A DNA stretch of 64,000 bases from the IMG/VR virus record IMGVR_UViG_3300042564_003728, one strand, 5' to 3'. The notes below the pieces were generated by a model. The model had not been told where the DNA came from. It did no database searches and saw only the letters and a program-made list of their open reading frames with translations. Made by a program: the position numbers and the translations under genes. Origin of the DNA: a virus. Below, piece after piece: positions 2,571 through 62,585 of this stretch (position 1 is its first letter; every line of letters begins with the position of its first letter).

Positions 2571-2998
2571 TATCTTACTCTATAAAGGGTGAGTTGAAGT
2601 GTCTGCGGATTAGCATTATTTATTATCTCATAATAGACTGATACTTCATAAGAATGCGCAAACTCATTTGATACTACTAAGACATCAATGATTCGAGCTC
2701 GCTGTTCGTATTTGGTAATCGAATCGAACACGGCATCTTTGATAAGATCTGAAGTCATCACAGAAATATCTTCGAATAAGAATCGACGAAGACCACCACC
2801 AAATTCTGGATTAAACAATCGTTCTTTGGTATTTGTCTGTAAGATATTTCTCATCGATCTTCTGACAGCCTGTTCGTCAGTGTGAAGAGCGAGTCTCTTG
2901 TTCTGAGGATGTATGTTAAAGTTATTATAAAAGTCGGTGAACACAGGATCACGCTGTGTTGTTTTCCTCGTTGTCAGTGCATCTATTCTGTCTGCCAT
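2570..2998 (-). CDS. 25: baseplate wedge subunit gp25 (GPW/gp25 lysozyme-like fold)
   Basis: 142 aa; RLFNPEFGGGLRRFLFEDISVMT matches T4 gp25 RPFDPEFGCDLSDQLFENMTP; TATAAATA late promoter 20 nt upstream on the minus strand (plus coordinates 3019-3026). Confidence 0.8.
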   Translation of the reverse strand: MADRIDALTTRKTTQRDPVFTDFYNNFNIHPQNKRLALHTDEQAVRRSMRNILQTNTKERLFNPEFGGGLRRFLFEDISVMTSDLIKDAVFDSITKYEQRARIIDVLVVSNEFAHSYEVSVYYEIINNANPQTLQLTLYRVR

Positions 2999-3018
2999 AT
3001 TACCCTACTACTTTATCT

Positions 3019-3026
3019 TATTTATA
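3019..3026 (-). promoter_or_regulatory. T4-type late promoter TATAAATA for gp25-gp6-gp7 operon
   Basis: Plus strand reads tatttata, which is TATAAATA on the minus strand, followed by a 20-nt leader with an AGGG RBS before the gp25 ATG at 2998. Confidence 0.5.
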
Positions 3027-3030
3027 ATGA

Positions 3031-3606
3031 TTATATGATGGTTTCTAGTATCTCATAGTTTTCGATGTCGACATTTGCAACATCGTCAGAGAGAAGCCCA
3101 ACCTGGCCAGTAAAGGCAAAGTTTTGATAATCTTCGTTGCTACCAATCGCATCTAATCCTGGACCAGCCGAACGAGTAAAATCATATCGTATCATTACAA
3201 ATGTAGATTTATTCGTTTCAATATAAGAAAGAAGCTTGTTGTTGCCATCATACACAAAATCAGTCAAAATCATATCACAATCTTCGTACGAAACAACTGT
3301 TCCGACCTCAAACGTATCGTTGACTTCGTGTCTGAAAGGATACCAATCATCAACAACAACATCATGATCTGTTGCAAACACATAAACTGCACATAACAAT
3401 AAATCATCAACACAATTTTGTTCGCATCGTACGAAAGTCGGCATATACCAATCGTCAATTTCAACCGTGGTGACTCCAGGTTCTGGCACAGTAAATCGTA
3501 TTGCGATTGGTGGGCTTAGATCCCCATAAGAAACTGTTGGAACTGTCGGTTCGCTAACATCTGAAAAGAAATATCCATTTTCTGATACTGAATATTGATC
3601 TAACAT
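3031..3606 (-). CDS. hypothetical protein, probably virion/baseplate-associated
   Basis: 191-aa ORF inside the late structural operon between gp25 and gp5; no recognisable motif. Confidence 0.3.
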   Translation of the reverse strand: MLDQYSVSENGYFFSDVSEPTVPTVSYGDLSPPIAIRFTVPEPGVTTVEIDDWYMPTFVRCEQNCVDDLLLCAVYVFATDHDVVVDDWYPFRHEVNDTFEVGTVVSYEDCDMILTDFVYDGNNKLLSYIETNKSTFVMIRYDFTRSAGPGLDAIGSNEDYQNFAFTGQVGLLSDDVANVDIENYEILETII

Positions 3607-3622
3607 GTTAGACTAATCCACT

Positions 3623-4954
3623 TCACACGGTTGCAGAAGCGGGCTGAGCCCATTTTGGCAGATTGTCTGGATTCGGTTCTAACCCGTACTTCGTTCTACG
3701 TATCTCGATGCAATTCGGAATGAATTTTAAGATCGCATCTGGAATACCAAATATCGGTTTTAAAATGATATTTAAAACCTGACAAATCGATACTTTGCCG
3801 CGACAGATGTCAATAATCAGTTTGATTGTGTCGAGGATTTTGCCTACGATTGGAAACTGCTGTAGAATCCAACCTGGAGCTTTGAGTATGATATCATGTA
3901 TCTTGGCAATCAAATCTGTCTGAAAGAACTTCTTAATCTTTTCCATGGCGTCTTCGAACGCATCTTCAATTCGATGCCACAATTCTTCTTTTGAATGAAT
4001 CGTTTCTTTCTTCTTACGTTCTTCGTTATCGAAACCAATTAAATTGCCTAAGGTTCCGAAGAGCGGGATCGGCAAGTTCAAGACAAAGTCTATGAGTTCT
4101 TGGAGTAACTTCTCTCCAAAGTCTTCGATAGCTTTACCTGATAAGACGTCTTCTTTTGCCTTCTTAATACGTTTCTTAAAATCTTCATACTTCAGTTTTA
4201 ATTGCGCTTTAATAGGCTTCGTAGGATCGATGAATACTCCAATCTTTTCAATGATTGGACCAATAATAGGAATCTTAGTCAGTAAGCCGATCAATGCATT
4301 GATGCAGGCGGCAATAAAATCGCTCAGCAGTTCTTTCATCCATGCCAAAGCTTTCTGCCAAAATTCTTCGGCTTCATGCTCAGGACTCTTAATACCCAGA
4401 GTTCCGTCGTATTTGCCATCACCAAAAAACTTTCGAACCGATTCGATGTCTTCGGCAATTGCAGCTTTGATCTTGACTTTACCTTCCTTCGTAAACAAAT
4501 CGTTGATTACTGGCTGATAACGAACAGGATTACCAGCTTCGTCGACGAGTGTTACAGCCGTAATGAATGGAATCGGGGTAGTAAGTGGATTTGGAATTCC
4601 AAGAATATCAACAATCTTGAGTAGTGCGTCGACGATCCTCTTCTGAAACCATACGTCGATCTCTTTTAAAAACTCGCGGACCTTATACTTCATCTCTTGT
4701 TCTTTTGACTTGATCTTCTTAAAGACGTCAGTCATCAGAATACCAGTAATATCATCGACTAGCTTTTCCATGTCTCGAATAGCTTCGATGAGTTCTTTGC
4801 CGCACTCGTCTTGAATAAACTTTGCTTGTAACTTCAGTTGGCTAATGATCTTTGCAATGCCTACGAAATAGTCTTCCATTTGACGGAAAGATATTTGCCC
4901 GTTAGGACCACATTCTAAATTAGGAACTTCAGGAACATAGACTATCGGTCTCAT
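3623..4954 (-). CDS. hypothetical protein (443 aa), baseplate-hub neighbourhood
   Basis: Long ORF that overlaps the gp5 stop (ATGA) and is co-oriented with structural genes; Lys/Ile/Glu-rich helical composition. Confidence 0.3.
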   Translation of the reverse strand: MRPIVYVPEVPNLECGPNGQISFRQMEDYFVGIAKIISQLKLQAKFIQDECGKELIEAIRDMEKLVDDITGILMTDVFKKIKSKEQEMKYKVREFLKEIDVWFQKRIVDALLKIVDILGIPNPLTTPIPFITAVTLVDEAGNPVRYQPVINDLFTKEGKVKIKAAIAEDIESVRKFFGDGKYDGTLGIKSPEHEAEEFWQKALAWMKELLSDFIAACINALIGLLTKIPIIGPIIEKIGVFIDPTKPIKAQLKLKYEDFKKRIKKAKEDVLSGKAIEDFGEKLLQELIDFVLNLPIPLFGTLGNLIGFDNEERKKKETIHSKEELWHRIEDAFEDAMEKIKKFFQTDLIAKIHDIILKAPGWILQQFPIVGKILDTIKLIIDICRGKVSICQVLNIILKPIFGIPDAILKFIPNCIEIRRTKYGLEPNPDNLPKWAQPASATV

Positions 4955-16972: not shown

Positions 16973-17869
16973 TCAATCTTCTTCGGCAAGCCGTTTGAAG
17001 AAATCGAGATCATCGTCGTCTTCATCGACCGTAGAAGCTGCAGCAGGTGCAGCAGCCGCCTTGAAGGTAGGCGCAGGAGCTTTATACTCCTCTTCATCAC
17101 GATCAACTCCGCGAATCTTGGCAGGTTCCGCAGAAAGTGCCAAGACAGTGTTCAGACGAGTCTTAAGATCCTCATAAGACTTGAATTGCTTTGCATCTAC
17201 GAGCTCAGCGAGCGGATACTCTTGAGTGTAGACACGTTCAAGCTCACTGTCATCATCGAACAGTGGTGCGGGAGAGTCGAATTCTGACTTATCGTAATTA
17301 GGCCAACCTTCGACCTTACGAATTTTGAGCTTGAAATTAGCACCGTTCCAAAGATCGAAAGGATTTACTGGCTTCTCGTCCTCAAAACCTGGGTTCATGA
17401 GGTCGTTCAGCTTATCGAAGATCTTCTTTCCGTACTTGTACAGGAAGACCTTACCTTCGTTCGCAGGATTGCCTGGATCCTTCACAACATAGATGTTGCT
17501 GTGGTATGCCAAGCGGCGCTTCTGCTTGCGTGCGATCTCCTTATCAGAGTCAAGACCAGTGTTCCAAAGAACGCTGTTGTATTCTGACACGGGATCGTCT
17601 TTACCGAGAGTCGTAAGCGACTTCTCGATGTACCAAAGACCTGTTGGTCCTTGGAATCCATGGTCCCAGATGCGAGTGAAAGGAATGTCTTCGTTGGCTG
17701 GCGCGGGAAGGAAACGAATCACGGCGTATCCATTACCAGCTTTATCAACGGTAGGCTTCCAATACTTTCCCTCGTCGGGATCTGAATATGTGGTATTTTG
17801 TTTAGCAAGTTCTTTGGTGAGCTTCTCAAAAGAAGAGTTGGAAGAACGCTTAAGGTCTGCAAATGACAT
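16973..17869 (-). CDS. 32: single-stranded DNA-binding protein gp32
   Basis: [46 protein letters not shown] and the acidic tail [10 protein letters not shown] align with T4 gp32 ([52 protein letters not shown]). Confidence 0.9.
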   Translation of the reverse strand: [298 protein letters not shown]

Positions 17870-17934: not shown

Positions 17935-18510
17935 TCATGAAGTAAAGGCAGCCTTGACAATTTTTCTACATTTAAATGCATCATAATGAAAGAAAGGCTT
18001 ATACTTCAGCAGCTTCTTGTGGATGCTGGGCCATAGGACACCATCCTCAATCTTCTTGTTCCAATGACCGAAGAACCCGAAGATATCATTGAGGATAATC
18101 ACCGTCTCGATAGAAATCTCTCGACGAAGATATTGTTTCAGTAAGAAGGGATGTTGCCCATTCTTTACAATAACACAATCATTGAAATTTGTACATAGTT
18201 TTTTTACGTCTTCTTCGAAGATATAAGAAAGAGACTGCTGTCTCTTCAACCATTCATTGTACACTTTCTCTGAGTCATCGCCGAACAGATCGCCTATCCA
18301 TTTTAAATCGCCATCTACAAAGTTGGCAACAAGATATTTGAGTGGATCTTTATGTTTCGACAACTTATAGAACTGATACTTGTCCTTACGTACATCAAAG
18401 CTCGAAGGCTTTGCGCCTATCTTGCCGTTGTATTTGATGTAGTCATAGCTGTCTGTTGTGAAGTGGTTTTTAAGGGCGAGGAAAGTGGTGTAGCTCTCGA
18501 ATGGAGTCAT
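17935..18510 (-). CDS. 59: gp59 helicase-loading protein
   Basis: 191 aa; YDYIKYNGK...RKDKYQFYKLSKHKD parallels T4 gp59 YDVIKYNW...RRDKYFFQKLSEKYK; the gene order 33-59-32 is conserved. Confidence 0.75.
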   Translation of the reverse strand: MTPFESYTTFLALKNHFTTDSYDYIKYNGKIGAKPSSFDVRKDKYQFYKLSKHKDPLKYLVANFVDGDLKWIGDLFGDDSEKVYNEWLKRQQSLSYIFEEDVKKLCTNFNDCVIVKNGQHPFLLKQYLRREISIETVIILNDIFGFFGHWNKKIEDGVLWPSIHKKLLKYKPFFHYDAFKCRKIVKAAFTS

Positions 18511-18761
18511 ACTGGTAGCTTAGCCCTCTTTGGCATGAAGTTGAGTTCTTCTGCTTCGTCTTGAAGCTTTGCCTTGATACGAATGTTACTACGAATGATA
18601 CTCGCAGCAGCCTCGATCTCGATGTTATTCTTTTCACAATAGTGGACGACGGCATCCATATAATCTAAATCATAATTAATAACCAGTCGTTCAATTTCTT
18701 TAATGAACTTTTCAGAAGTCAATGCTTTCGTTGAAATGACGTCGTCCACCATAATAATCAT
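18507..18761 (-). CDS. 33: late-transcription coactivator gp33-like
   Basis: 84 aa; YDLDYMDAVVHYCEKNNIEIEAAASIIRSNIRIKAKLQDEAEELNF parallels T4 gp33 EFGMSYLEATTAFLEENSIPETQFAKFIPSGIIEKIQSEAIDENLL; lies immediately upstream of gp59 as in T4. Confidence 0.55.
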   Translation of the reverse strand: MIIMVDDVISTKALTSEKFIKEIERLVINYDLDYMDAVVHYCEKNNIEIEAAASIIRSNIRIKAKLQDEAEELNFMPKRAKLPV

Positions 18762-19336
18762 CCTCTATAAAAAATGTGTGCACCAATCTTAGTCGTACGA
18801 GCAAACACTCTACCCCATGACGGACTTACGTAGTCAGCGTGGTAAAACTTTGCTCCCTTTGTTACGTCACCGTAATTTCCGAGATACACATGTTCGGCGA
18901 TTTCCTTTGATTTTGCAAAAGCTACACCGTCACGAATTCTTTTTCCACCCTCACACTTCCATGAAAATTGGCATACGCGCGCAGTTCTCTGATTGATAAC
19001 TCCACATGGCGTGCTTGGGAAACGATCGTCTTTTGCGCGGTTCAAAACAACATTGTTTACCGCAATCCTACCTTTATAAGGTTCATGAGCCGCTTCGAAG
19101 TATGTATTCTCGGCCATGCATTGGATTTGTTTTTTGTCGTAGTTGCTCAGATAGACTGGCTTCTTTACGACCTTTTCTTTTTCGATTACCTGAATGACTG
19201 GGACCTTTACGATCTTGACTTCAGGTTCTTTGTTTGGTGTAGCCAAAGCCACGCCTGTTACTGCAATGATACCTATGACAAAGCCTTCGGCCCAGCGTAG
19301 ATACGGGAAATCTTTTCTAGTTTCGAAAAGTTTCAT
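18758..19336 (-). CDS. SleB/CwlJ-family cell-wall hydrolase with N-terminal membrane anchor
   Basis: 192 aa; hydrophobic segment WAEGFVIGIIAVTGVALA; Hydrolase_2-like core KKQIQCMAENTYFEAAHEPYKGRIAVNNVVLNR. Confidence 0.55.
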   Translation of the reverse strand: MKLFETRKDFPYLRWAEGFVIGIIAVTGVALATPNKEPEVKIVKVPVIQVIEKEKVVKKPVYLSNYDKKQIQCMAENTYFEAAHEPYKGRIAVNNVVLNRAKDDRFPSTPCGVINQRTARVCQFSWKCEGGKRIRDGVAFAKSKEIAEHVYLGNYGDVTKGAKFYHADYVSPSWGRVFARTTKIGAHIFYRG

Positions 19337-19499
19337 GTTCTTCCTCTTAGTCTCAATGACTTTGGCAAACAGAGACTACTTTACAGGCATCCCAGCCATA
19401 TAGTTTTCTGCCGCTATAAGAAGATACACAAGAGAATAACGAAGTATCTTCCATCCATTTCCCTCTTACTGGAAATGCAAAATCATTAGTGTTTTCGTC

Positions 19500-19970
19500 G
19501 GTGGCATCCGAATGATGCCGCTTTCTAGCCATCTAAGACTTGAAGTTTTGCAAGAGTCAATGGAGGATTCTAACCTCCGTCGTGATATTTTATTTATACT
19601 ACCACCAGCGGTTTTTCTGGTGACTCGTAGCACCAGAGATTCAACTGGTAGCAAGTGGCCCGTTCTGTTCCAAGGTGGAGCCATACCCGTGTAGATCATG
19701 CCGCTAGGCGGATATCTGCAAAGCTATCGTTATCGTTAGCATTTATGTTTAGTGGCACTTTGCCAGGCAATCAGTCTCGAACCGCCCTATTACACGAAAA
19801 TCGAATTCCAAGGTCACCCCCATCATCTACTATGCAAACACGCTTCGGCTTCCTGGCATGTTCGGGATACGATTATAACCGTATCCGGATTAATGCATAG
19901 TAGATGGTGGAGGTGCGGGGAGTCGAACCCCGGTCTTTCCGCCTTTATTGTTGATTGTCAACAACTGATA
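19500..19970 (-). ncRNA. ssrA: permuted (two-piece type) tmRNA gene. Acceptor piece is about 19970-19905, intervening hairpin 19904-19822, coding piece 19821 to about 19500.
   Basis: The minus strand reads ...GGCGGAAAGAC-CGGGG-UUCGACU-CCCCG-CACCUCC-A-CCA (T-arm plus acceptor 3' strand, G3:U70-compatible). An 83-nt spacer is closed by the 11-bp helix UCUACUAUGCA/UGCAUAGUAGA. Then comes GGGGGUGACCUUGGAAUUCGAUUUUCG (tmRNA 5' end, which pairs 7/7 with CACCUCC). The tag ORF GCU AAC GAU AAC GAU AGC UUU GCA GAU AUC CGC CUA GCG GCA UGA encodes ANDNDSFADIRLAA, 81 nt from the 5' G. The 3' boundary of the coding piece is uncertain. Confidence 0.6.
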
Positions 19971-19995
19971 TACTATATATACAATGTTTTTCTTT

Positions 19996-20010
19996 AATTG
20001 TACATGCTTA
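19996..20010 (-). promoter_or_regulatory. promoter-like motif upstream of tmRNA (TAAGCATGTACAATT, then a 17-nt spacer, then ATATAT)
   Basis: A member of the recurrent AAACATGTACAA motif family. The TGTACA hexamer, a 17-nt spacer and a TATATA -10-like element (19980-19974) precede the predicted tmRNA precursor start. Confidence 0.4.
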
Positions 20011-20445
20011 ATTGCACCAAGACTGTTTTGCATCTCCGAAATATGCTCGAGCAAAGCTGTTCTTAATAAGCAGATCGCGAAGGCTCATGCCGTCAAGCAG
20101 AATGTCACCGAGTACACGGCCACCAAACTTGTCCCAATCATATAGAACAACCTGATGTTTCTTCGTACCAGCAATTACATCTTTGACAAAAACAGAAGCT
20201 TGCTCTCCACGCTTCTTTTCGCTCTCGCACTTGGCACGAAAGCTTTTTTCTGGAGTATCAACACCAAAGATACGAACGCCGAGTTCAGGCTTGAGCGGAG
20301 CTGGTAAGTATGGTGCCTCGATGACAATCGTATCTCCATCAATTGCTCGAACGATCTTTGCATCATAGGTTACACCAACGGGTGTTTTCTGAGCAATTGC
20401 TGGAGTTGCTAGCATGACTAATGCTAGAGCGATAAAATTCTTCAT
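20008..20445 (-). CDS. secreted staphylococcal-nuclease (SNase/thermonuclease) family nuclease
   Basis: Signal peptide MKNFIALALVMLATPAIAQ; SNase Ca/active-site blocks RAIDGDTIVIE and RIFGVDTPE; 145 aa. Confidence 0.7.
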   Translation of the reverse strand: MKNFIALALVMLATPAIAQKTPVGVTYDAKIVRAIDGDTIVIEAPYLPAPLKPELGVRIFGVDTPEKSFRAKCESEKKRGEQASVFVKDVIAGTKKHQVVLYDWDKFGGRVLGDILLDGMSLRDLLIKNSFARAYFGDAKQSWCN

Positions 20446-20454
20446 ATATTTTCC

Positions 20455-20787
20455 TTAATTACAAGTGGTTTCCCAATAAACATACCGGCGACCGTAGCGC
20501 CACTCGGTAATCTGTTCACGAACGCAGTAGCGTCTATCATATCGATAATCTGGTGGATAATAACGAGTGTCATTATAATCTTGATTTCTATCTTCTTCTG
20601 GTGCTCGTTCTTTTGAAGCAAGCACACCTACAACGACACCGCCGATAATGGCACTACATAGCCAACCACATCCGCTTTTACGTTTTTGTTTGTGTTCGCG
20701 ATGTTCTGTACGATCATAATTTCTTGCAAGAACTGGAGTAGAAATCAGCATACTGCTGACAATTGCGAATGTAATAAGCTTCTTCAT
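20455..20787 (-). CDS. small secreted Tyr/Arg/Cys-rich protein
   Basis: Signal peptide MKKLITFAIVSSMLISTPVLA from an internal Met; the tail is YYPPDYRYDRRYCVREQITEWRYGRRYVYWETTCN. Confidence 0.3.
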   Translation of the reverse strand: MKKLITFAIVSSMLISTPVLARNYDRTEHREHKQKRKSGCGWLCSAIIGGVVVGVLASKERAPEEDRNQDYNDTRYYPPDYRYDRRYCVREQITEWRYGRRYVYWETTCN

Positions 20788-20788
20788 A

Positions 20789-21028
20789 TTAGAACCTTTC
20801 ATCGATATCGGCAAACATCACTCGTTTTCTTGGATCTCCATCAGTGATACATCGAGTCAGTGTAAGCGCTTCTTTGTAATTCTTTGTATGGAACATGACA
20901 GGAAAGATGATCTCATCATCCTCCATTTCGAATGCCATTCCAACAAAGTAAGTACCGTTTTCTACCATAAACGTATTTATAATTGGGAGAACCGAAGCTC
21001 TCCCAACCATATTAGGCAGCATCTGCAA
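20789..21028 (-). CDS. hypothetical protein
   Basis: 79-aa ORF in a tight array with its neighbours. Confidence 0.25.
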   Translation of the reverse strand: MQMLPNMVGRASVLPIINTFMVENGTYFVGMAFEMEDDEIIFPVMFHTKNYKEALTLTRCITDGDPRKRVMFADIDERF

Positions 21029-21959
21029 ACTCCACCGCAGTTTCCAATGCCTTCGTCTTGAGGTTCTTATTCGAACCGTACCAGGCAGAAGTCATGCGAT
21101 TATCTGCATTGCGACCAATCATGTGATCAGTCATGAAGGTAACCGCGTTGAAAGCCTGCCACCAGCTACCTTCGCCATATTCGGCGCCAGGCTGTTGATC
21201 CATGATTTCGAGAGCGATACCAGCATTCTTGCTGAGATCTTTCTTCGAACCGGTGACAGGGAATACACGCTGGAAATACTCGACGATGTTCTCGTCAGTG
21301 TAACGCTTCGAACCAAGATAAGCAGCCATTTCCTTGTACTTCGCAAGCTTTTCCTTGGCAACACCGAGTGTTTCCTTGACAACGTCACCGTCAAACTCGC
21401 GGCGATGGCTGACCTTGACAATCTTGCTCGACTGGCTGTTCAGCGAGAGCGTGAGAGTGTTGTTGCAAACGACGCGAACAGGAGTGAAGCGAACGTCGAT
21501 CGACCAACCATACTTATGCGGATTGGTGAAGAGCAGGTAGGAATCGACCTGATCGCCCTTGAACAATTCGAAGGAATCCTTCACCTTTGCCAAGGCCCAA
21601 ACAAGCTGGCCATCGCGAAGCGAACCAGCTGTGTGCATTTCCATCTCACCAGCTGCAACGAAATCATTGAAGAATTCGAAGGCCGATTCGTTCTGATTAG
21701 GAACCCAATCGTTGGTGATGACGTCGAGGATCTTATTGTCAACGTCACGAACCAGAGCGGAGTGGCCGATGTCGGTTTGTTTGCCACCGATATTGGCAAA
21801 AGCAGTAATTGGATTGACCTTCCAGTCAAGACCAGCGGCCTTCAGCATCTGATTCGGTGTAAGGTCGTTCGAGACCTTCGTACCGAGACCATGCCAAGGT
21901 GTTTCGCCGGCATAAGCCATCGAAGCCTTGCCGTCGAGAAATTCAATCATATGAGCCAT
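21012..21959 (-). CDS. DUF932-like phage/plasmid protein
   Basis: The N-terminus MAHMIEFLDGKASMAYAGETPWHGLG is characteristic of the DUF932 family. The recurrent promoter-like motif sits just upstream (22003-22020). The start is more likely the internal Met at 21959 than 22001. Confidence 0.4.
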   Translation of the reverse strand: MAHMIEFLDGKASMAYAGETPWHGLGTKVSNDLTPNQMLKAAGLDWKVNPITAFANIGGKQTDIGHSALVRDVDNKILDVITNDWVPNQNESAFEFFNDFVAAGEMEMHTAGSLRDGQLVWALAKVKDSFELFKGDQVDSYLLFTNPHKYGWSIDVRFTPVRVVCNNTLTLSLNSQSSKIVKVSHRREFDGDVVKETLGVAKEKLAKYKEMAAYLGSKRYTDENIVEYFQRVFPVTGSKKDLSKNAGIALEIMDQQPGAEYGEGSWWQAFNAVTFMTDHMIGRNADNRMTSAWYGSNKNLKTKALETAVEFADAA

Positions 21960-22002
21960 AATATAGTTTCCTTTTTCAATTTGGTATAACCATTCTACCA
22001 TA

Positions 22003-22020
22003 GAATGGCCTATTTGTACA
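22003..22020 (-). promoter_or_regulatory. promoter-like motif copy (AAATTAAACATGTACAAA on minus strand)
   Basis: Member of the recurrent motif family, about 40 nt upstream of the DUF932 gene start. Confidence 0.3.
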
Positions 22021-22028
22021 TGTTTAAT

Positions 22029-22958: not shown

Positions 22959-23648
22959 TTATCCGTACATTTGATGGTAAGATCGAACCAGATCGGTCGC
23001 TTTCTCAAGGTAGTTTTGAGGACGTTCCCTAAACACTTGTGCCTCGAGAGAATCATCGACACCAATGATGATAACGATATCCTTCACTAAGATGCCTGTC
23101 ATTTCCCATAGCATGTATGCATAGAGACTGGTCTGTAGGAAGTATCCTTCGATCCAGTCCTTTCGCTTCAGCTTCGCAGAAGTCTTATAGTCAATGATCG
23201 ACAGACGGCCGTCGTAGTCTGCTATGAGGTCGCATGAACCTGCTAGTTTCAGATGATCGGAGAAGAGCGTACATTCTGTGGCTCTGATCATGTCAACCTT
23301 GTCGTCAAGGATCATCTTGATCTGACGAAACATCATCATGTTATGAGGCATCGACGTATCGATGTCATGGCCTAACACATAGTTTTCACACATCGTATGG
23401 ATGTTAGTTCCACGAGTGGCAGCCCGAGATGAAACTCGAGCTGCTTCGTCCTCGCCTACTCTTTTCTTCCAAGCTTCAAGGGCAGATTTATCAGTCATCT
23501 TACCGAGGACGGCGGTGACAGACGGATATCTCTTTCCTTCTGGTGTCTCATAGAGACGTGTTGGACCATCTATCCTTTGCAGCTCCGCAAAGTCTAGCAG
23601 ATCGTATTCGAAACCTTTACGGTTGAAGTCCGAGTTTTTGACGAGCAA
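22959..23648 (-). CDS. PD-(D/E)xK family exonuclease (Cas4/RecB-like)
   Basis: 229 aa; YPSVTAVLG...W N-terminal motif and D-x(n)-IIDYKTS core typical of PDDEXK exonucleases. Confidence 0.45.
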   Translation of the reverse strand: MLVKNSDFNRKGFEYDLLDFAELQRIDGPTRLYETPEGKRYPSVTAVLGKMTDKSALEAWKKRVGEDEAARVSSRAATRGTNIHTMCENYVLGHDIDTSMPHNMMMFRQIKMILDDKVDMIRATECTLFSDHLKLAGSCDLIADYDGRLSIIDYKTSAKLKRKDWIEGYFLQTSLYAYMLWEMTGILVKDIVIIIGVDDSLEAQVFRERPQNYLEKATDLVRSYHQMYG

Positions 23649-24369
23649 TTATATATTCCTTCACTAATTTCGATCGAACGATATCCTGTTCGAGAAAGTC
23701 AACATGTACAAAATCATTCAACTTACCGAGGACCTTCATAAAGTCCTTGAGTCCGTTGCGTTCTTGGTCCTTCGTAAGATCTGACTGACGGAAGTCACCG
23801 CAGAACAATACTTTACAACCCTTACCAATACGAGTGATCACCGAGTCCAGTTCGTGGAACGTCATGTTATTGACTTCGTCCACAATGACAAAACAGTTGT
23901 TCATGGTAATACCACGAACGAACGACGTTGAGATAAACTCGATGGCGTTCTTCTGCTTGAGGATCTCGTATGCATCAGACCGATCAAACAATTCGGTGCA
24001 GATTGCATAGTAAGGTGCCTCATAGACCTTCATCTTTTCCTTCTGGTTTCCAGGAAGAAAACCCATATCTCGTGTTGGTACTACCGATCTTACAATATAA
24101 ATCTTATTTTGTACACCGGTATTTTCCATCATCGATTCAATGGCCTTATACAGAGCAATAAACGTTTTACCTGTACCAGCCATGCCGTGCAACATCAAAT
24201 GTTTTCCATCATCAAAAGCATCAAACGCAATGCGCTGGTTTTCTGTGAGTGGATTAATATTTTTTAAATTGAAATTTTGAGTTTTAAATGTCAACCCTTC
24301 TTGTGTGTCACCATTTTGTCTGGCGATTCTTTTTTCTCTCTTAGTTAAACGAGGTTGGCTATGTTGCAC
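23617..24369 (-). CDS. phoH: PhoH-like ATPase
   Basis: Walker A GMAGTGKTF; IVDEVNN Walker B; the full PhoH family pattern is present. Confidence 0.8.
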   Translation of the reverse strand: MQHSQPRLTKREKRIARQNGDTQEGLTFKTQNFNLKNINPLTENQRIAFDAFDDGKHLMLHGMAGTGKTFIALYKAIESMMENTGVQNKIYIVRSVVPTRDMGFLPGNQKEKMKVYEAPYYAICTELFDRSDAYEILKQKNAIEFISTSFVRGITMNNCFVIVDEVNNMTFHELDSVITRIGKGCKVLFCGDFRQSDLTKDQERNGLKDFMKVLGKLNDFVHVDFLEQDIVRSKLVKEYIIARQKLGLQP

Positions 24370-25258: not shown

Positions 25259-26110
25259 TTAAAACTCGTTAATGCTTTCTAATAGGAGTTTGAGACGACG
25301 TTCGATAAAGTAGTTGAAGAGTTTATCTCTTCCTTTACCAGCTTGCTGCTCGTACTGCACGAGCACTTCCTTCTTAATATCAGGAGGAATGAAGTTGAGA
25401 TCAACGAGCTGCTGATTGCGAAGGTAACCGCGCAGCATCTTCTCGTCACAGAATTCCTTTGGATCTGATACGAGCCACTGATCTAATTTTTTCTGACTAA
25501 TAGGTTTCTGTCTGGCACCGACAACGAACGTGTCATCTGCTGACAAGAAGTTAGGAACACCGTCGCCAGTATCACCGCGAATGATATGTTCTTTGATGAA
25601 CTTATCGACGTCGTTCGTCTTACGCCACTTCTTCTGTACAGGATCAAACTGCTGTACGTTCATGTAAGCTTGAAGCTGCACAAAGTCCTTGTCACCAGAA
25701 AGAATCAAGATCTTCTCGTTGGTATTGCCATAGGTTTGTGCAAGAGTGCCGATGATATCATCAGCTTCGGCGCCATCGACACGAATGACTCGATAAGGAA
25801 AGTAATCCTTGAGTTCATCGCGGACTTTATTGAGAGTCTCGAATACGGCAGTCCAGTTGATCTCGGACTTCTCACGATTCTTACGACGATTGGCTTTGTA
25901 ATAGGGAAATACTTGACGGCGCCAGTTATTACCAGCATCGCATGCGATAATCATCTCGCCGAACTCGTTCTTAAACTTGACATTATAAGCTCGAACAGAG
26001 TTTAGCACCATGTGTCGCAAAAGATCTTCTTCGATATCTGCATTCGTGTGGTTTCCAAGTTGTATCATTAGATTGGAAATCATAACCTGCGAAAGGTCCA
26101 TAATAATCAT
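25259..26110 (-). CDS. rnh: RNase H (FEN-family 5'-3' exonuclease)
   Basis: Collinear with T4 RNase H: LRHMVLNSV / VRHLILNSI; WRRQVFPYYKANRRKNRE / WRRDFAYYYKKNRGKARE; IRVDGAEADDIIGTL / MDIDKYEADDHIAVL; identical C-terminus SINEF. Confidence 0.85.
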   Translation of the reverse strand: MIIMDLSQVMISNLMIQLGNHTNADIEEDLLRHMVLNSVRAYNVKFKNEFGEMIIACDAGNNWRRQVFPYYKANRRKNREKSEINWTAVFETLNKVRDELKDYFPYRVIRVDGAEADDIIGTLAQTYGNTNEKILILSGDKDFVQLQAYMNVQQFDPVQKKWRKTNDVDKFIKEHIIRGDTGDGVPNFLSADDTFVVGARQKPISQKKLDQWLVSDPKEFCDEKMLRGYLRNQQLVDLNFIPPDIKKEVLVQYEQQAGKGRDKLFNYFIERRLKLLLESINEF

Positions 26111-27555: not shown

Positions 27556-27609
27556 GTTTACCTCTGTAGTTCCTTGTTTGTATTATTCAATCTACTACAG
27601 TTTTGATAA

Positions 27610-27627
27610 TTTGTACATGTTTATTTT
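27610..27627 (-). promoter_or_regulatory. promoter-like motif copy
   Basis: Minus strand AAAATAAACATGTACAAATTATCAAAACTGTAG. Confidence 0.3.
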
Positions 27628-28382
27628 CATAGGTCGATTTTATAATTAAAACTTGGACCACCCTTTGGCGTGTACTGCTCTGCGTTTGGCTCCCAACCAG
27701 GAGTTCCAACGACCGGTTCCCACTTTTTGTCGATATGTTCCTTCTTGACATATGACCACTTACGAGAAGTTTCCATTGCCGTTTCCATACCATACTCGAG
27801 CAATTGATTGTGCACAGCATCGTGTTCGTACATCTCTACGTCATCGAAGACGAAGACTGCGCCAGGATCTGATCGTTCAAGGAAAAACGCAATCTCGGTA
27901 TCAAGCGCTTCGAGCGTATGAGGACCATCGAAGTGAACTACGCTGTACTTATTGACAAGACTCTTATGCTCTGCATAGACAGGAACACCGTCTGCATAAC
28001 GATTGAAGAACTCTGTGTCTTCGAGGTTGAACATGTAGAAATTCACATTCTTCTGACGACAATACAGATACATGTTGATCATGCACACGTCGCGCATCTC
28101 ATTCGTATAGTCACAGCGACCTTCTTTGAAGATCTCGTCACGATAATATTCGATGTTGCCATACGGATCAATACCAAAGACTGGCTTCTCAGGAGTCTGA
28201 CCGCTTTCTACGAGACCGTCGATGATACGTTGTAGACCACCACCGAGACGGACACCGATCTCGACTGCCGCACCTTCTACACCTTTTGATCGAATGGCTG
28301 CGTCAGTGAGTACTTCATAGTTTCCACTGTCTGTGCCGAATTGTGCTTGGATCTGATGGATCGATACTGGTTGTTGTGACAT
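27627..28382 (-). CDS. class I SAM-dependent methyltransferase
   Basis: Motif I VEIGVRLGGG; first gene of the sugar-modification operon. Confidence 0.45.
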   Translation of the reverse strand: MSQQPVSIHQIQAQFGTDSGNYEVLTDAAIRSKGVEGAAVEIGVRLGGGLQRIIDGLVESGQTPEKPVFGIDPYGNIEYYRDEIFKEGRCDYTNEMRDVCMINMYLYCRQKNVNFYMFNLEDTEFFNRYADGVPVYAEHKSLVNKYSVVHFDGPHTLEALDTEIAFFLERSDPGAVFVFDDVEMYEHDAVHNQLLEYGMETAMETSRKWSYVKKEHIDKKWEPVVGTPGWEPNAEQYTPKGGPSFNYKIDL

Positions 28383-28981
28383 TATGTAGTTACCTTACCT
28401 CTGGTTCTGATATATTTAGCAATCATATGCATGATCGCCTGATGGACGTCTTCTGCTGCTTCGTATTCTTGAATATCAACGTGCAAAGAAATATCTGCGA
28501 GTTGAGCACACTTATTATCTGGTGAAAATCCTGTCAGAGCAATAGTCTTTATTTTCAATGACTTAGCAGTCTCAATTGCCTTGACAACATTTGGAGAATT
28601 ACCACTCGAAGAAATGGCTACGAGTACATCGCCTTCTTGCCCGAGTGCATCGAGCTGGAACGAGTAAACATCATCATAAGAGATGTCATTCGCCACGGCT
28701 GTCATGAGTGGAATATTTGCTGCCAAAGAAATAACTCTTGGTCGCAGTCCGCCTTTCTTACATCCTTTGGTATAGTCGCATGCCCAATGCTGAGCGATGG
28801 AAGCAGAAGCACCGTTTCCAATTGTATAGATGTTGTTACGATGATTCGAAATGCTTGTCAACCAAATGAGTTCGGCTGCCTTTTTAAATTCTTCATGATC
28901 GATACTTGCAAAGCCGATATTAATCAAGCCCATATGATCGAATATAATGTCAGTCTCGATAGACAACTCTTGCTCCTTCAT
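28382..28981 (-). CDS. gmhA: phosphoheptose isomerase GmhA (SIS domain)
   Basis: TIGNGASASIAQHWACDY and VAISSSGNSPNV are SIS/GmhA signatures; 199 aa. Confidence 0.7.
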   Translation of the reverse strand: MKEQELSIETDIIFDHMGLINIGFASIDHEEFKKAAELIWLTSISNHRNNIYTIGNGASASIAQHWACDYTKGCKKGGLRPRVISLAANIPLMTAVANDISYDDVYSFQLDALGQEGDVLVAISSSGNSPNVVKAIETAKSLKIKTIALTGFSPDNKCAQLADISLHVDIQEYEAAEDVHQAIMHMIAKYIRTRGKVTT

Positions 28982-29891
28982 GTGCGATGCCTACATCGAG
29001 GCACGTTCTGTCTGAAAATTCTTGGCGGATCAAGTTTTTCTGATCTGTGATTGCTAGCATGTATCCGCCGCCTCCTGCTCCGAGCAGTTTAGATCCGAAT
29101 GCTTCTGCTGATTGGCATCGATCGTACATACTATCTATCTCTTCTGAAGAGATGCCTTCAGTCATCTGTTTCTTTAATATCCATGCAGCATTCAACAATC
29201 CACCATAGTCAAATGGATTTACAGCTTGAGTGCTTTGCATATCTGCCATATGAGCAAGCTCACGAATTACAAATGTCTTGGCTTCGAAGTTAATCTTATC
29301 AAGAATCTTTGCTGCATGATGCTCTACGTTTGTAGGAATCAAGATTATGTAATTCTCGATTCCCATTGTATCTAAACGCTTTACAGTGATATTACCGCTG
29401 TTCGAATATTGAATATAGTTCATACCGCCGAAGGCAGATGCAAACTGATCTTGCATGCCAATCTTCCAACCGCATAGATCGATCTCGATGTGGCAAGCAG
29501 TCTTTGCGATGAGATAAGGGTTTACGTATTCGTAACCAAGATATGCTGATAGCGCTTTAATCAAGGCACAAGTAAAAGCAGACGATCCACCGAGACCGTT
29601 GCCGATCGTAGGGATGTCTGCGAATGATGTGATCTCGATGTTGGATTTGATACCGAAGAATTTCAAAGCGTTCTTGACAATATCGTTCTGAAGATCCTCA
29701 ACGTTCTCTACACACTCTTGTTTCGAATAAGAAACTTTGATGTGGTCGTGAGGAGTATGCATGACTGCTACATAGACATACTTGTCGATGGCAGTTGAGA
29801 TGGTTGCTCCACCCCATTGCGCAAAGTGGGCGGGGATATCACTACCCCCGCCGAAAAAACTAACTCTGAGTGGTGCTTTGGCCAATATCAC
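28950..29891 (-). CDS. GHMP sugar kinase, D-glycero-D-manno-heptose-7-phosphate kinase (HddA)-like
   Basis: PLRVSFFGGGSDIP and NGLGGSSAF are GHMP kinase motifs; the adjacency to GmhA implies a heptose pathway. Confidence 0.55.
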   Translation of the reverse strand: MILAKAPLRVSFFGGGSDIPAHFAQWGGATISTAIDKYVYVAVMHTPHDHIKVSYSKQECVENVEDLQNDIVKNALKFFGIKSNIEITSFADIPTIGNGLGGSSAFTCALIKALSAYLGYEYVNPYLIAKTACHIEIDLCGWKIGMQDQFASAFGGMNYIQYSNSGNITVKRLDTMGIENYIILIPTNVEHHAAKILDKINFEAKTFVIRELAHMADMQSTQAVNPFDYGGLLNAAWILKKQMTEGISSEEIDSMYDRCQSAEAFGSKLLGAGGGGYMLAITDQKNLIRQEFSDRTCLDVGIAHEGARVVYRD

Positions 29892-30864
29892 GGTGTTGTT
29901 CCTTTAACGAAGCGATGAGTCCCTTCCACTTGGGAATTACAGAATCCCAACCGAAGCGAGTATCTGCGTAGGCTTTGACAAATGACATCATGTTAGTAAT
30001 GTCGTTGTTCTGTACGTTCTCGATGGCATACATCAGAGTGTGTGCAAAGATGTTAGCATGCAGATTTGGATTCTCATGGTCGCCGTCATACTGTACGGTC
30101 AACCCACCCGACGTGTCAGCCAAAGCAGAGAAGTTAGGATGAACCGCCAAACAACCAGCCGACATAGCTTCAATAAGTGACCTGCACGAAGTTTCCGGCC
30201 AGATGCAAGGATATGCAAAGATGTGGGCTTTTTGATATGCGGCACGGACTGTCTCCTGATCTGCCCAACCATGATAGTTGATTTGTGGGTGCTCTTTCAT
30301 CCGATCGAAGATAGGTTTGTACGCTTCGTCGCGACTCTCCCAACCTGGACCATAAATGCCGAACGAAGAGTATACGTCTAGCTCGATGTTAGGATATTTC
30401 TCGGCGAGAGCGCAAAAGACAGGAACCAGAATCTCCAATCCACGATGAGGCGTGGACGTATAAATGAGACGAATCTTGTCCTTTGGTTTGTCAACGAGTG
30501 GAATAGGCTCGATGCCTGTTTCGATAACTGTTGAATGATTGCTATATGGAACTCCAAGATAATCACGATACTGTTGATACTGCCAGTTAGAACTGAAGAC
30601 CAACTTTTGAAAGCGAGCTCGAGAAGCTGGATCTTGAAGGTGTGAAGCTTCCGGATCACCGGCGAGATCATGTAAATGATAGATCTTAATTCGGTCAGGA
30701 TCGAGGTCGCGGACGCGAGCAGTGATAATTTGGACACCATCGAGTTCATCACTTGAAAGTCGGTGGAAAAGATTTCGAGTGGTAAGTTCTGTTCCACCAT
30801 TCGAGTCCTTATTCAGTTCGTTCAGTTCAATCTTATCTTGATTATTCATTATTTTTGTATCCAT
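29860..30864 (-). CDS. GT-B fold glycosyltransferase (GT4-like)
   Basis: C-terminal EAMSAGCLAV motif of retaining GT-B enzymes; 334 aa. Confidence 0.5.
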   Translation of the reverse strand: MDTKIMNNQDKIELNELNKDSNGGTELTTRNLFHRLSSDELDGVQIITARVRDLDPDRIKIYHLHDLAGDPEASHLQDPASRARFQKLVFSSNWQYQQYRDYLGVPYSNHSTVIETGIEPIPLVDKPKDKIRLIYTSTPHRGLEILVPVFCALAEKYPNIELDVYSSFGIYGPGWESRDEAYKPIFDRMKEHPQINYHGWADQETVRAAYQKAHIFAYPCIWPETSCRSLIEAMSAGCLAVHPNFSALADTSGGLTVQYDGDHENPNLHANIFAHTLMYAIENVQNNDITNMMSFVKAYADTRFGWDSVIPKWKGLIASLKEQHRDIGQSTTQS

Positions 30865-52809: not shown

Positions 52810-52826
52810 AATTGTACATGCTAAAA
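52810..52826 (-). promoter_or_regulatory. promoter-like motif variant (TTTAGCATGTACAATT)
   Basis: GCTTA-type variant of the motif, as at 19996 and 57219. Confidence 0.25.
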
Positions 52827-57218: not shown

Positions 57219-57234
57219 AATTGTACATGCTTAC
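57219..57234 (-). promoter_or_regulatory. promoter-like motif variant (GTAAGCATGTACAATT)
   Basis: GCTTA-type variant. Confidence 0.25.
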
Positions 57235-59110: not shown

Positions 59111-59160
59111 ATTATAGATCCACCTTACCAAAAATTGTATTAATTGTACATGTTTATTTT
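59111..59160 (-). repeat. early promoter/RBS cassette, diverged copy D
   Basis: The minus strand reads AAAATAAACATGTACAATTAATACAATTTTTGGTAAGGTGGATCTATAATGAAGAAGGAT-ATGATGATG, driving a 33-aa ORF (MMMSAEEQEFWEGYEAWLDEQADRAAYERMVEM). Confidence 0.5.
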
Positions 59161-62529: not shown

Positions 62530-62585
62530 AACTTCTCCTTGTCTGATTGTCCCAGTATATACGATATATCTTTATTTGTACACCA

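Follow-up and report, generated by a model that had tools for sequence, protein, structure and literature searches.

What gene, if any, lies in a gap of 670 nt that independent metagenome gene calls leave empty near the late-transcription coactivator gene gp33 of a T4-like phage? The gap is found in IMG/VR virus record IMGVR_UViG_3300042564_003728, of which a stretch of 64,000 nucleotides (the window) was analysed. An initial annotation, made from the letters of positions 19500-20010, had read there a two-piece, circularly permuted transfer-messenger RNA (tmRNA; gene ssrA) with a promoter of its own. Our analysis leads to much the same answer: the element is very probably a functional circularly permuted ssrA gene, resident in a T4-like phage of the aquatic clade of cyanophages, pelagiphages and phage Melnitz.

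Both searches that the annotation had proposed returned a tmRNA. ARAGORN called a permuted tmRNA with the tag ANDNDSFADIRLAA at 19605-20000 on the minus strand, and the order of its parts agrees with the permuted form that the program flagged, the CCA (19907-19905) lying upstream of G1 (19821) on the same strand. The Rfam model tmRNA_permuted (RF04321) matched over its full length (model positions 1-213) with 89 bits against a gathering score of 47 (E = 9e-16), and alpha_tmRNA (RF01849), the best model in its clan, matched with 54.2 bits against a gathering score of 50. No Pfam or PHROG match was found for any open reading frame (ORF) overlapping the tmRNA, those across the acceptor pairing included. 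The reading of a phage-borne permuted tmRNA of the alphaproteobacterial type, with its own promoter, in a T4-like phage is supported because these two independent tmRNA detectors agree, helices covary, T4 core genes stand on both sides and the promoter motif recurs in the window. Covariation was assessed on two alignments: A1, of 47 distinct coding pieces, tests the post-tag pseudoknot, and A2, of 13 divergent relatives found via gp59, tests the tRNA-like domain. The parts of the gene are as follows.

19905-19969, minus strand: acceptor piece, 65 nt (Rfam alignment, covariation on A2)
19969-19964, minus strand: AUCAGU, putative 5' end of the acceptor piece, placed by promoter spacing and complementarity to ACUGAU
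19965-19950, minus strand: acceptor-piece hairpin
19941-19936, minus strand: P2a strand CGGAAA of the acceptor piece
19932-19916, minus strand: T-arm CGGGG-UUCGACU-CCCCG
19915-19909, minus strand: acceptor 3' strand CACCUCC
19908 and 19907-19905, minus strand: discriminator A (A73) and encoded CCA
19822-19904, minus strand: intervening segment, 83 nt, presumably excised as in bacterial two-piece tmRNAs
19650-19821, minus strand: coding piece, 3' end approximate
19821-19815, minus strand: acceptor 5' strand GGGGGUG
19800-19795, minus strand: P2a strand UUUUCG of the coding piece
19775-19770, minus strand: ACUGAU of the coding piece
19765-19753, minus strand: pre-tag hairpin UGGCA/UGCCA
19740-19699 and 19698-19696, minus strand: tag reading frame with resume codon GCU, encoding ANDNDSFADIRLAA, and its stop codon UGA (ARAGORN, translation)
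19657-19688, minus strand: post-tag H-type pseudoknot (covariation on A1)
19649-19632 and 19622-19603, minus strand: two extra hairpins after the pseudoknot, ACCAG/CUGGU and CACCAG/CUGGUG

All sequence details of the initial annotation were borne out at their stated positions. Its acceptor 3' half (T-arm, CACCUCC, A and CCA) is in place on the minus strand, and GGGGGUG, 83 nt downstream, pairs with CACCUCC at all seven positions, the G3:U70 wobble included. The tag frame ending in UGA (19740-19696) begins 81 nt after G1, as annotated. The 83-nt spacer is closed by the 11-bp helix UCUACUAUGCA/UGCAUAGUAGA (19904-19894 with 19836-19826) and holds two inner hairpins, one of them the 7-bp GGAUACG/CGUAUCC, which is extended to 9 bp in the minimum-free-energy fold; UGAU (19825-19822) faces ACCA. 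The spacer alone folds at -33.7 kcal/mol (z = -6.3). The computed fold of the precursor (z = -5.0) contains the T-arm, the spacer helix and the acceptor stem that bridges the spacer. Two observations place the 3' limit of the coding piece at approximately 19650: the Rfam alpha model ends at 19654, and in relatives a ribosome-binding site (RBS) and ATG follow the pseudoknot by ~15-25 nt. ARAGORN's limit of 19605 falls inside the second extra hairpin. The two extra hairpins show the compensatory form CGCCAG/CUGGCG in relatives, are not present in other tag subfamilies and have no U-tract after them (19649-19603); they may be part of the coding piece, protect its 3' end or stop transcription.

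Covariation supports the fold on both sides of the spacer. The post-tag pseudoknot consists of S1, GGGU (19688-19685) with ACCU (19676-19673), and S2, GGCUC (19682-19678) with GGGCC (19661-19657), with the loop UGGAACAGAAC. On A1 87.7% of cells were paired, compared with 38-60% when the partners were slid; 11 pairs of S1 and S2, among them all six core S2 pairs, had changed on both sides, and the observed values were reached by none of 500 shuffles. The loop motif AACAGAA is the alpha_tmRNA consensus and is also found in Melnitz. A pseudoknot-compatible fold thus follows the tag, as the annotation's reading called for, and of the four pseudoknots it named this one post-tag pseudoknot stood, by covariation; four are a feature of one-piece tmRNAs, and no evidence was found for the three post-tag pseudoknots known from those molecules. 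In the tRNA-like domain 94.5% of A2 cells were paired against 39-56% in slid controls. Both-sided changes were seen at five of the six P2a pairs (CGGAAA/UUUUCG in the window, GUUCCG/UGGGAU in others) and at two of the five T-arm pairs; the acceptor stem was 100% paired, with one of its seven pairs compensatory (G-C to A-U), and G3:U70 was invariant in 13/13 sequences. AUCAGU at the 5' end of the acceptor piece is complementary to ACUGAU in the coding piece, with one-sided pairing-preserving changes only. The pre-tag hairpin is supported as well, its counterpart in one relative (L032; contigs of relatives carry labels of this kind) being UGAUCG/CGAUCA. Two other pairings were considered. A ViennaRNA pairing of AGGCGGA with the tag region was rejected in favour of P2a: it is broken in L039 and L072, and P2a is kept in L087 and covaries. 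A P2b helix, AAUC/GGUU, is a candidate whose register differs among relatives.

The promoter is well supported as a sequence feature, its activity and timing being predicted, and a second promoter-like element follows the gene.

20004-19999 and 19981-19974, minus strand: -35-like TGTACA and -10-like TATATATA with a 17-nt spacer, putative tmRNA promoter
19591-19598, minus strand: T4 late-promoter consensus TATAAATA, at the start of the next unit (leader, hydrolase, gp33)

The tmRNA promoter begins 3 nt past the stop codon of the upstream SNase-like gene and ends 4 nt ahead of AUCAGU, with a predicted transcription start near 19969. Its -35-like hexamer is TGTACA of the phage motif class, compared with the sigma-70 consensus TTGACA. 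Six copies of the class motif CATGTACAAWT are present in the window, all on the minus (coding) strand (19996-20006, 22012-22022, 27609-27619, 52810-52820, 57219-57229 and 59142-59152), where 0.16 copies are expected (~40-fold), and this recurrence bears out the phage-type promoter of the initial annotation. The copies elsewhere share the layout TGTACA-N17-TAnnnT, and an RBS and ATG follow most of them at a short distance; a weaker copy of the class was noticed near 62582. In relatives the tmRNA promoter reads TTGACT or TGTACA, N17 and TATAAATA, and the Melnitz ssrA promoter reads TTGACA-N17-TATAAATA. The -10 element of the relatives and of Melnitz thereby coincides with the T4 late-promoter consensus, from which the window copy is one base off. 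The consensus itself, TATAAATA, has 10 copies in the window against 2.7 expected, and the copy at 19598-19591 is kept in relatives. Between that copy and the start codon of the hydrolase gene, ~255 nt (19337-19598, minus strand) are near-invariant in 13 distinct relatives, with variation concentrated in hairpin loops. This region has no Rfam match and no called gene, and a 59-aa ORF within it (19353-19532) lacks a conserved start in L003. A structured leader or a small RNA may lie here, and the corresponding position in Melnitz holds a glutamine riboswitch.

Is the gene particular to this genome or a property of its lineage? A gp59 scan returned 321 viral contigs; the best 80 were examined, and 56 of these extend at least 2 kb upstream of gp59. 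A permuted tmRNA stands 1.0-1.6 kb upstream of gp59 in 49/56 (88%) of these close relatives, and the gene is therefore near-core in the window's phage lineage. The other seven (L264, L267, L272, L278, L279, L286 and L287) gave no ARAGORN tmRNA call near gp59. Searching with a 27-nt T-arm/acceptor sequence found 91 IMG/VR contigs, with a complete permuted tmRNA in 74 of the 80 listed, and ~36 of those 74 carry the window's exact tag. The distance from G1 to the resume codon is essentially fixed at 81 nt in relatives (81-83 in a few). No close relative was found among 50,697 phage records, where the best DNA matches were 126 bp of gp32 (cyanophages) and 34 nt (Ruegeria phage RpAliso).

The intervening segment behaves quite differently from the RNA around it. 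In 132 genes parsed for this purpose, a locus count inflated by contigs that were fetched twice, the segments fall into 38 unrelated families of 5-157 nt. Every family longer than 12 nt has a closing helix of 9-13 bp that extends from directly after the CCA to 4-5 nt (UGAU) before G1. The segments are hypervariable (L002-L092, L221-L292) even among phages otherwise 97-100% identical in gp59. Since relatives replace the segment by unrelated families, it is dispensable for the mature RNA, and we infer its excision by analogy with bacterial two-piece tmRNAs. The tag and the mature sequence persist while the segment is replaced, which argues for selection on the mature RNA. The same pattern bears on the possibility that the gene is a decaying, functionless relic of host DNA. 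The off-consensus T-loop and promoter of the window and the 7/56 relatives without an ARAGORN call at the locus would fit decay, but the mature parts are near-invariant over ~130 genes in which the excised segment turns over completely, compensatory changes keep the helices, the gene keeps its place even in Melnitz, whose RNA is 52% identical, and exact-tag and 27-mer scans found no bacterial counterpart. We consider a relic very improbable.

The segments also appear to move. The tag ANDNDSFADIRLAA was found with at least 17 intervening-segment families, and one 122-nt segment with four tags and two T-loop types; segments shared across tags and T-loop types suggest that modules are exchanged between phages, recombination at the conserved junctions CACCUCCACCA and GGGGGUGA being a plausible route. 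Both T-loop types share segments and tags, so the tRNA-like domain has been swapped too. In eight relatives whose gp59 is ~80% identical (L259, L261, L266, L268, L273, L275, L276 and L283) the T-loop is GGCAGUA or GGCGGUA and P2a is wholly different.

Some segments have contents of their own. Those of L006 (7793-7880), L009, L040 and L091 are cloverleaf-like, with a T-arm-like GGUUCGAAUCC hairpin abutting the closing helix. A tRNA gene in these T-loop-bearing segments was rejected: the tRNA-Sec model gave only 17.7 bits against a gathering score of 47, and ARAGORN called no tRNA. The 2025 tmRNA database (PMC11915505) mentions just one intervening segment that contains a tRNA gene. The longest segments, in L008 (6935-7380), L014 (9902-10370) and Melnitz (L293, 11080-11221), begin with a Shine-Dalgarno-like sequence and an ATG, and their ORFs of 54-57 aa take up the whole segment and continue beyond the RNase P site to end in the coding piece. 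These three ORFs have no Pfam match and no similarity to one another, and a BFD-like nature of the L008 ORF had no Pfam support. If the segment is excised, their mRNA would be without a stop codon. ORFs crossing G1 are mostly an artefact of the conserved AUGAUGGGGGUG junction.

A working model of the RNA, which for function and mechanism beyond the fold we infer from bacterial tmRNA biology, runs as follows. Host RNA polymerase would start at the promoter of the TGTACA-N17-TAnnnT class, ~4 nt upstream of AUCAGU. In the computed fold of the ~320-nt precursor CACCUCC pairs with GGGGGUG across the segment, and the closing helix stacks upon it; the acceptor stem and closing helix, between which ACCA faces UGAU, run on as one near-continuous duplex of ~20 bp, which would hold both ends together and could serve as a processing signal. 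RNase P would cut 5' of G1 (19821), endo- and exonucleases would trim to the CCA (19905), and the 83-nt segment would be discarded. The two pieces would then be held by the acceptor stem, by P2a (CGGAAA/UUUUCG, on covariation) and probably by AUCAGU/ACUGAU. Host AlaRS would charge the tmRNA via G3:U70 and A73, and host SmpB and EF-Tu would deliver it to ribosomes stalled on truncated mRNAs. The smpB gene was not found in the 64-kb window, weak evidence given the approximate query sequence, and the tmRNA would therefore depend on host SmpB. Translation would resume at GCU and append ANDNDSFADIRLAA, whose LAA end is presumably a ClpXP-type degron. The probable benefit to the phage, by analogy, is ribosome rescue and amino-acid recycling during host transcription shut-off and mRNA degradation.

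The tags raise the question of whose proteolysis the RNA serves. Phages with a gp59 identity of at least 79% have at least 12 different tags; all have the form ANDN...(L/V)AA, and their middle residues vary. The annotation's likening of the tag to alphaproteobacterial ones agrees with the tags of relatives, such as AANDNSPVEFALAA, which resemble the Caulobacter tag AANDNFAEEFAVAA (a string found in PMC1233412). Such tags, alpha_tmRNA as the best model of its clan and the relatives' T-loop GGCAGUA together point to an alphaproteobacterial type of tmRNA. Alpha-type T-loops, GGCAGUA or GGCGGUA, are present in the close relatives L261, L266, L268 and L283. The exact tag ANDNDSFADIRLAA was found in none of 185,579 bacterial species genomes. 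The RNA might accordingly be read as a competitor or retargeting device rather than a plain top-up of host trans-translation: it would out-compete the host tmRNA for SmpB, or its tag would redirect the fate of tagged proteins to a different adaptor or protease or to slower degradation. The absence of the exact tag from bacterial genomes, the diversity of middle residues among close relatives and the failure to find a phage smpB in the window (with the approximate query) agree with this, and a phage tmRNA consisting of the tRNA-like domain only (DS6A) has been reported to inhibit tmRNA (PMC4131195). However, the full tag frame, the resume context and the pseudoknot are conserved as in a working tmRNA, and all tags keep the ANDN start and (L/V)AA end. 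In model bacteria these ends are the parts that count when SspB and ClpX recognise a tag. The comparison, moreover, was with bacterial species genomes, so that a difference from the host's own tag is presumed. We regard retargeting, which the annotation had also raised, as speculative and improbable and retain a functional tmRNA working with the host machinery.

The 27-nt T-arm/acceptor sequence also occurs in at least 120 bacterial contigs of unrelated phyla, which gave 109 ARAGORN tmRNA calls, all of the standard one-piece form. Being common to one-piece tmRNAs of many phyla, it was uninformative as a pointer to a donor, and the exact tag, with no match in 185,579 species genomes, likewise failed to identify a bacterial donor or host; on these two counts no donor can be named. 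The 27-mer was met in two further viral settings: a 107-kb viral contig (L027, 3151-3562) has it in a standard one-piece tmRNA with a 30-aa tag, and an unrelated viral contig (L067, ~4798-4824) has the 3' end of a tmRNA alone, followed by a terminator-like hairpin, and resembles an integration-site fragment. The latter is the kind of arrangement expected if the locus were an integration-site mimic, that is, a tmRNA 3' fragment serving as attP of a temperate element, and tmRNA genes are common integration sites (PMC4383910). In the window, by contrast, the gene is complete and flanked by T4 replication and late-transcription genes, which refutes this explanation; in addition the window gene is permuted whereas 109/109 bacterial tmRNAs with the 27-mer are standard, and no integrase-family match was found among the ORFs scanned around the tmRNA. 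Virtually no weight remains on it.

Several observations weigh against a functional, alphaproteobacterial-type tmRNA gene with its own promoter. The T-loop of the window, UUCGACU, is not of the alphaproteobacterial type (alpha-specific GGCgGUA), and the alpha_tmRNA score is just above threshold (54.2 versus 50). The second stem of PK1, of 3-4 bp only, has no consistent register, and a full PK1 is not established. The -10 element TATATATA is imperfect with respect to both the sigma-70 and the T4 late consensus, and a generic sigma-70 scan missed the tmRNA promoter. Finally, the exact tag being absent from bacterial species representatives, we have to assume that host proteases and adaptors accept it. 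Parts of P2 and the 5' region of the acceptor piece are deleted in the window relative to the alpha model, and other relatives scored 47-49 bits with alpha_tmRNA (gathering score 50).

The genes around the tmRNA, all on the minus strand, were assigned as follows.

25259-26110, minus strand: T4-type RNase H
23617-24369, minus strand: PhoH
22959-23648, minus strand: PD-(D/E)XK nuclease
21012-22001, minus strand: DUF932
20455-20814, minus strand: ORF without a family match
20008-20445, minus strand: SNase-like endonuclease, directly upstream of the tmRNA promoter
18758-19336, minus strand: SleB-type hydrolase/endolysin, between tmRNA and gp33
18507-18761, minus strand: gp33 late-transcription coactivator
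17935-18510, minus strand: gp59
16973-17869, minus strand: gp32

The presence of gp32, gp59, gp33 and RNase H confirms a T4-like phage, and gp32 is 55-61% identical to that of T4-like cyanophages. The annotation's placement of the tmRNA between gp33 and RNase H holds loosely: RNase H is 5.3 kb away, and the genes that adjoin are those for the SNase-like endonuclease and the SleB-type hydrolase. The SNase-like endonuclease (145 aa) has a hydrophobic N-terminal segment that resembles a signal peptide as judged by eye. Further away, 28382-30864 on the minus strand encodes a SIS-domain protein, a GHMP-family kinase and a group-1 glycosyltransferase, with a methyltransferase adjoining at 27627-28382; together these have the look of a sugar-metabolism module that modifies the cell surface or nucleotide sugars.

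The annotation took a two-piece tmRNA in a phage to be unusual, a view that did not hold: such genes have been published in aquatic T4-like phages (PMC9004378), and in the window's lineage the gene is near-universal. A two-piece ssrA lies directly upstream of the gp33 coactivator gene in the OM43 phage Melnitz (Buchholz et al. 2022, PMC9004378), and the same study counted 53 two-piece tmRNAs (50 aquatic) in a set of 18,146 phage genomes, and permuted tmRNAs in 17/47 Melnitz-like contigs. The 2025 tmRNA database holds 79 unique phage tmRNAs (PMC11915505). The kind of gene and its locus are thus already described in related aquatic phages, of which the window is a further member.

The likeness to Melnitz (MZ577097, Methylophilales OM43) is close in organisation. 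Both have the order PhoH, PD-(D/E)XK, ssrA, gp33, gp59, gp32, and the Melnitz-type locus, ssrA upstream of gp33 behind a -35/N17/-10 promoter, is found in the window with one endolysin-like gene inserted before gp33. Both have the permuted two-piece form with a segment closed by a helix right after the CCA and ending in UGAU, an ANDN...LAA tag and a post-tag pseudoknot with an AACAGAA loop. In sequence, however, the mature RNA parts are only 52% identical. The tag is ANDNDSFADIRLAA in the window versus ANDNYVPVDYALAA in Melnitz, the T-loop UUCGACU versus the alpha-type GGCAGUA, the acceptor strand GGGGGUG versus GGGGGCG, and the -35 element TGTACA versus TTGACA. SNase, DUF932 and SleB-type hydrolase genes are inserted around the tmRNA in the window. 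Directly after the pseudoknot Melnitz has a glutamine riboswitch and the window two plain hairpins; no glnA or other riboswitch match was found at E <= 10 in window positions 18700-20600. The combination of tmRNA and riboswitch is rare, and Melnitz shows that the host does not necessarily follow from the type of tmRNA (PMC9004378). The conservation of the locus across RNAs only 52% identical suggests long residence in the phage clade rather than recent capture from a host. No tmRNA was found near gp33 in Caulobacter phage Cr30 or marine virus AG-345-L05.

Beyond Melnitz, the window RNA resembles the alphaproteobacterial two-piece tmRNA (RF01849), of which Caulobacter crescentus is the prototype (Keiler et al. 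2000, as cited in PMC9004378): permuted order, encoded CCA, G3:U70, an inter-piece P2, one post-tag pseudoknot with a GCAACAGAA-like loop and an ANDN-type tag are shared. Unlike that RNA, it belongs to a lytic-type T4-like phage and has a canonical T-loop and a shortened 5' region of the acceptor piece. Ruegeria phage RpAliso (OR257569) has an identical 34-nt T-arm/acceptor/CCA sequence and a permuted tmRNA as well. In this genome (L001 = OR257569.1) a complete permuted tmRNA lies at 2864-3207, unannotated in the record, with the tag ANENFAPVEMAVAA (ARAGORN) and an intervening segment of 30 nt with a closing helix. Its locus differs from that of the window, with a cluster of tRNA genes ahead of it and a gene for tRNA nucleotidyltransferase downstream, and the remaining RNA was not alignable by BLAST. 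RpAliso, whose host is in culture, could be used experimentally. Cluster C mycobacteriophages (Bxz1 and others) and Bacillus phage G likewise carry ssrA in a large lytic myovirus (PMC4131195). Unlike the window RNA, their tmRNAs are one-piece, have multiple pseudoknots and belong to phages of Gram-positive or actinobacterial hosts, and they are presumed to support translation (PMC4131195).

The absence of the exact tag from 185,579 bacterial species genomes, the hypervariability of the excised segment (38 unrelated families) and the shuffling of modules between phages may be new. The practical value is limited until the host is cultured, and the surprise is modest overall. For the family, the window adds a large, apparently uncultured branch (~130 metagenome genes) to the Melnitz and pelagiphage examples, and the fixed locus within the T4-like replication and late-transcription module speaks for long residence in phages and against recent host capture. 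Candidate roles of phage tmRNAs are ribosome rescue after shut-off, amino-acid recycling and redirected proteolysis. A bolder reading, which we hold to be rather unlikely, is that phages use the tmRNA as a modular, rapidly evolving tool of their own and do not just keep a spare copy of a host gene, with acceptor piece, segment and coding piece shuffled and the segment serving as a hypervariable cargo slot; segments do sometimes hold tRNA-like modules or small ORFs with a Shine-Dalgarno sequence. The phage-specific tags, with no exact bacterial match and at least 12 variants in one phage lineage, agree with it as well. If that is true, the variety of tags would stem from an arms race over the choice of proteins to be destroyed during infection or of the protease that destroys them. 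This lineage amounts to a natural experiment in which the mature RNA is almost frozen, the middle of the tag variable and the excised segment fully variable, a pattern that separates the selected parts of the molecule from those that are ignored.

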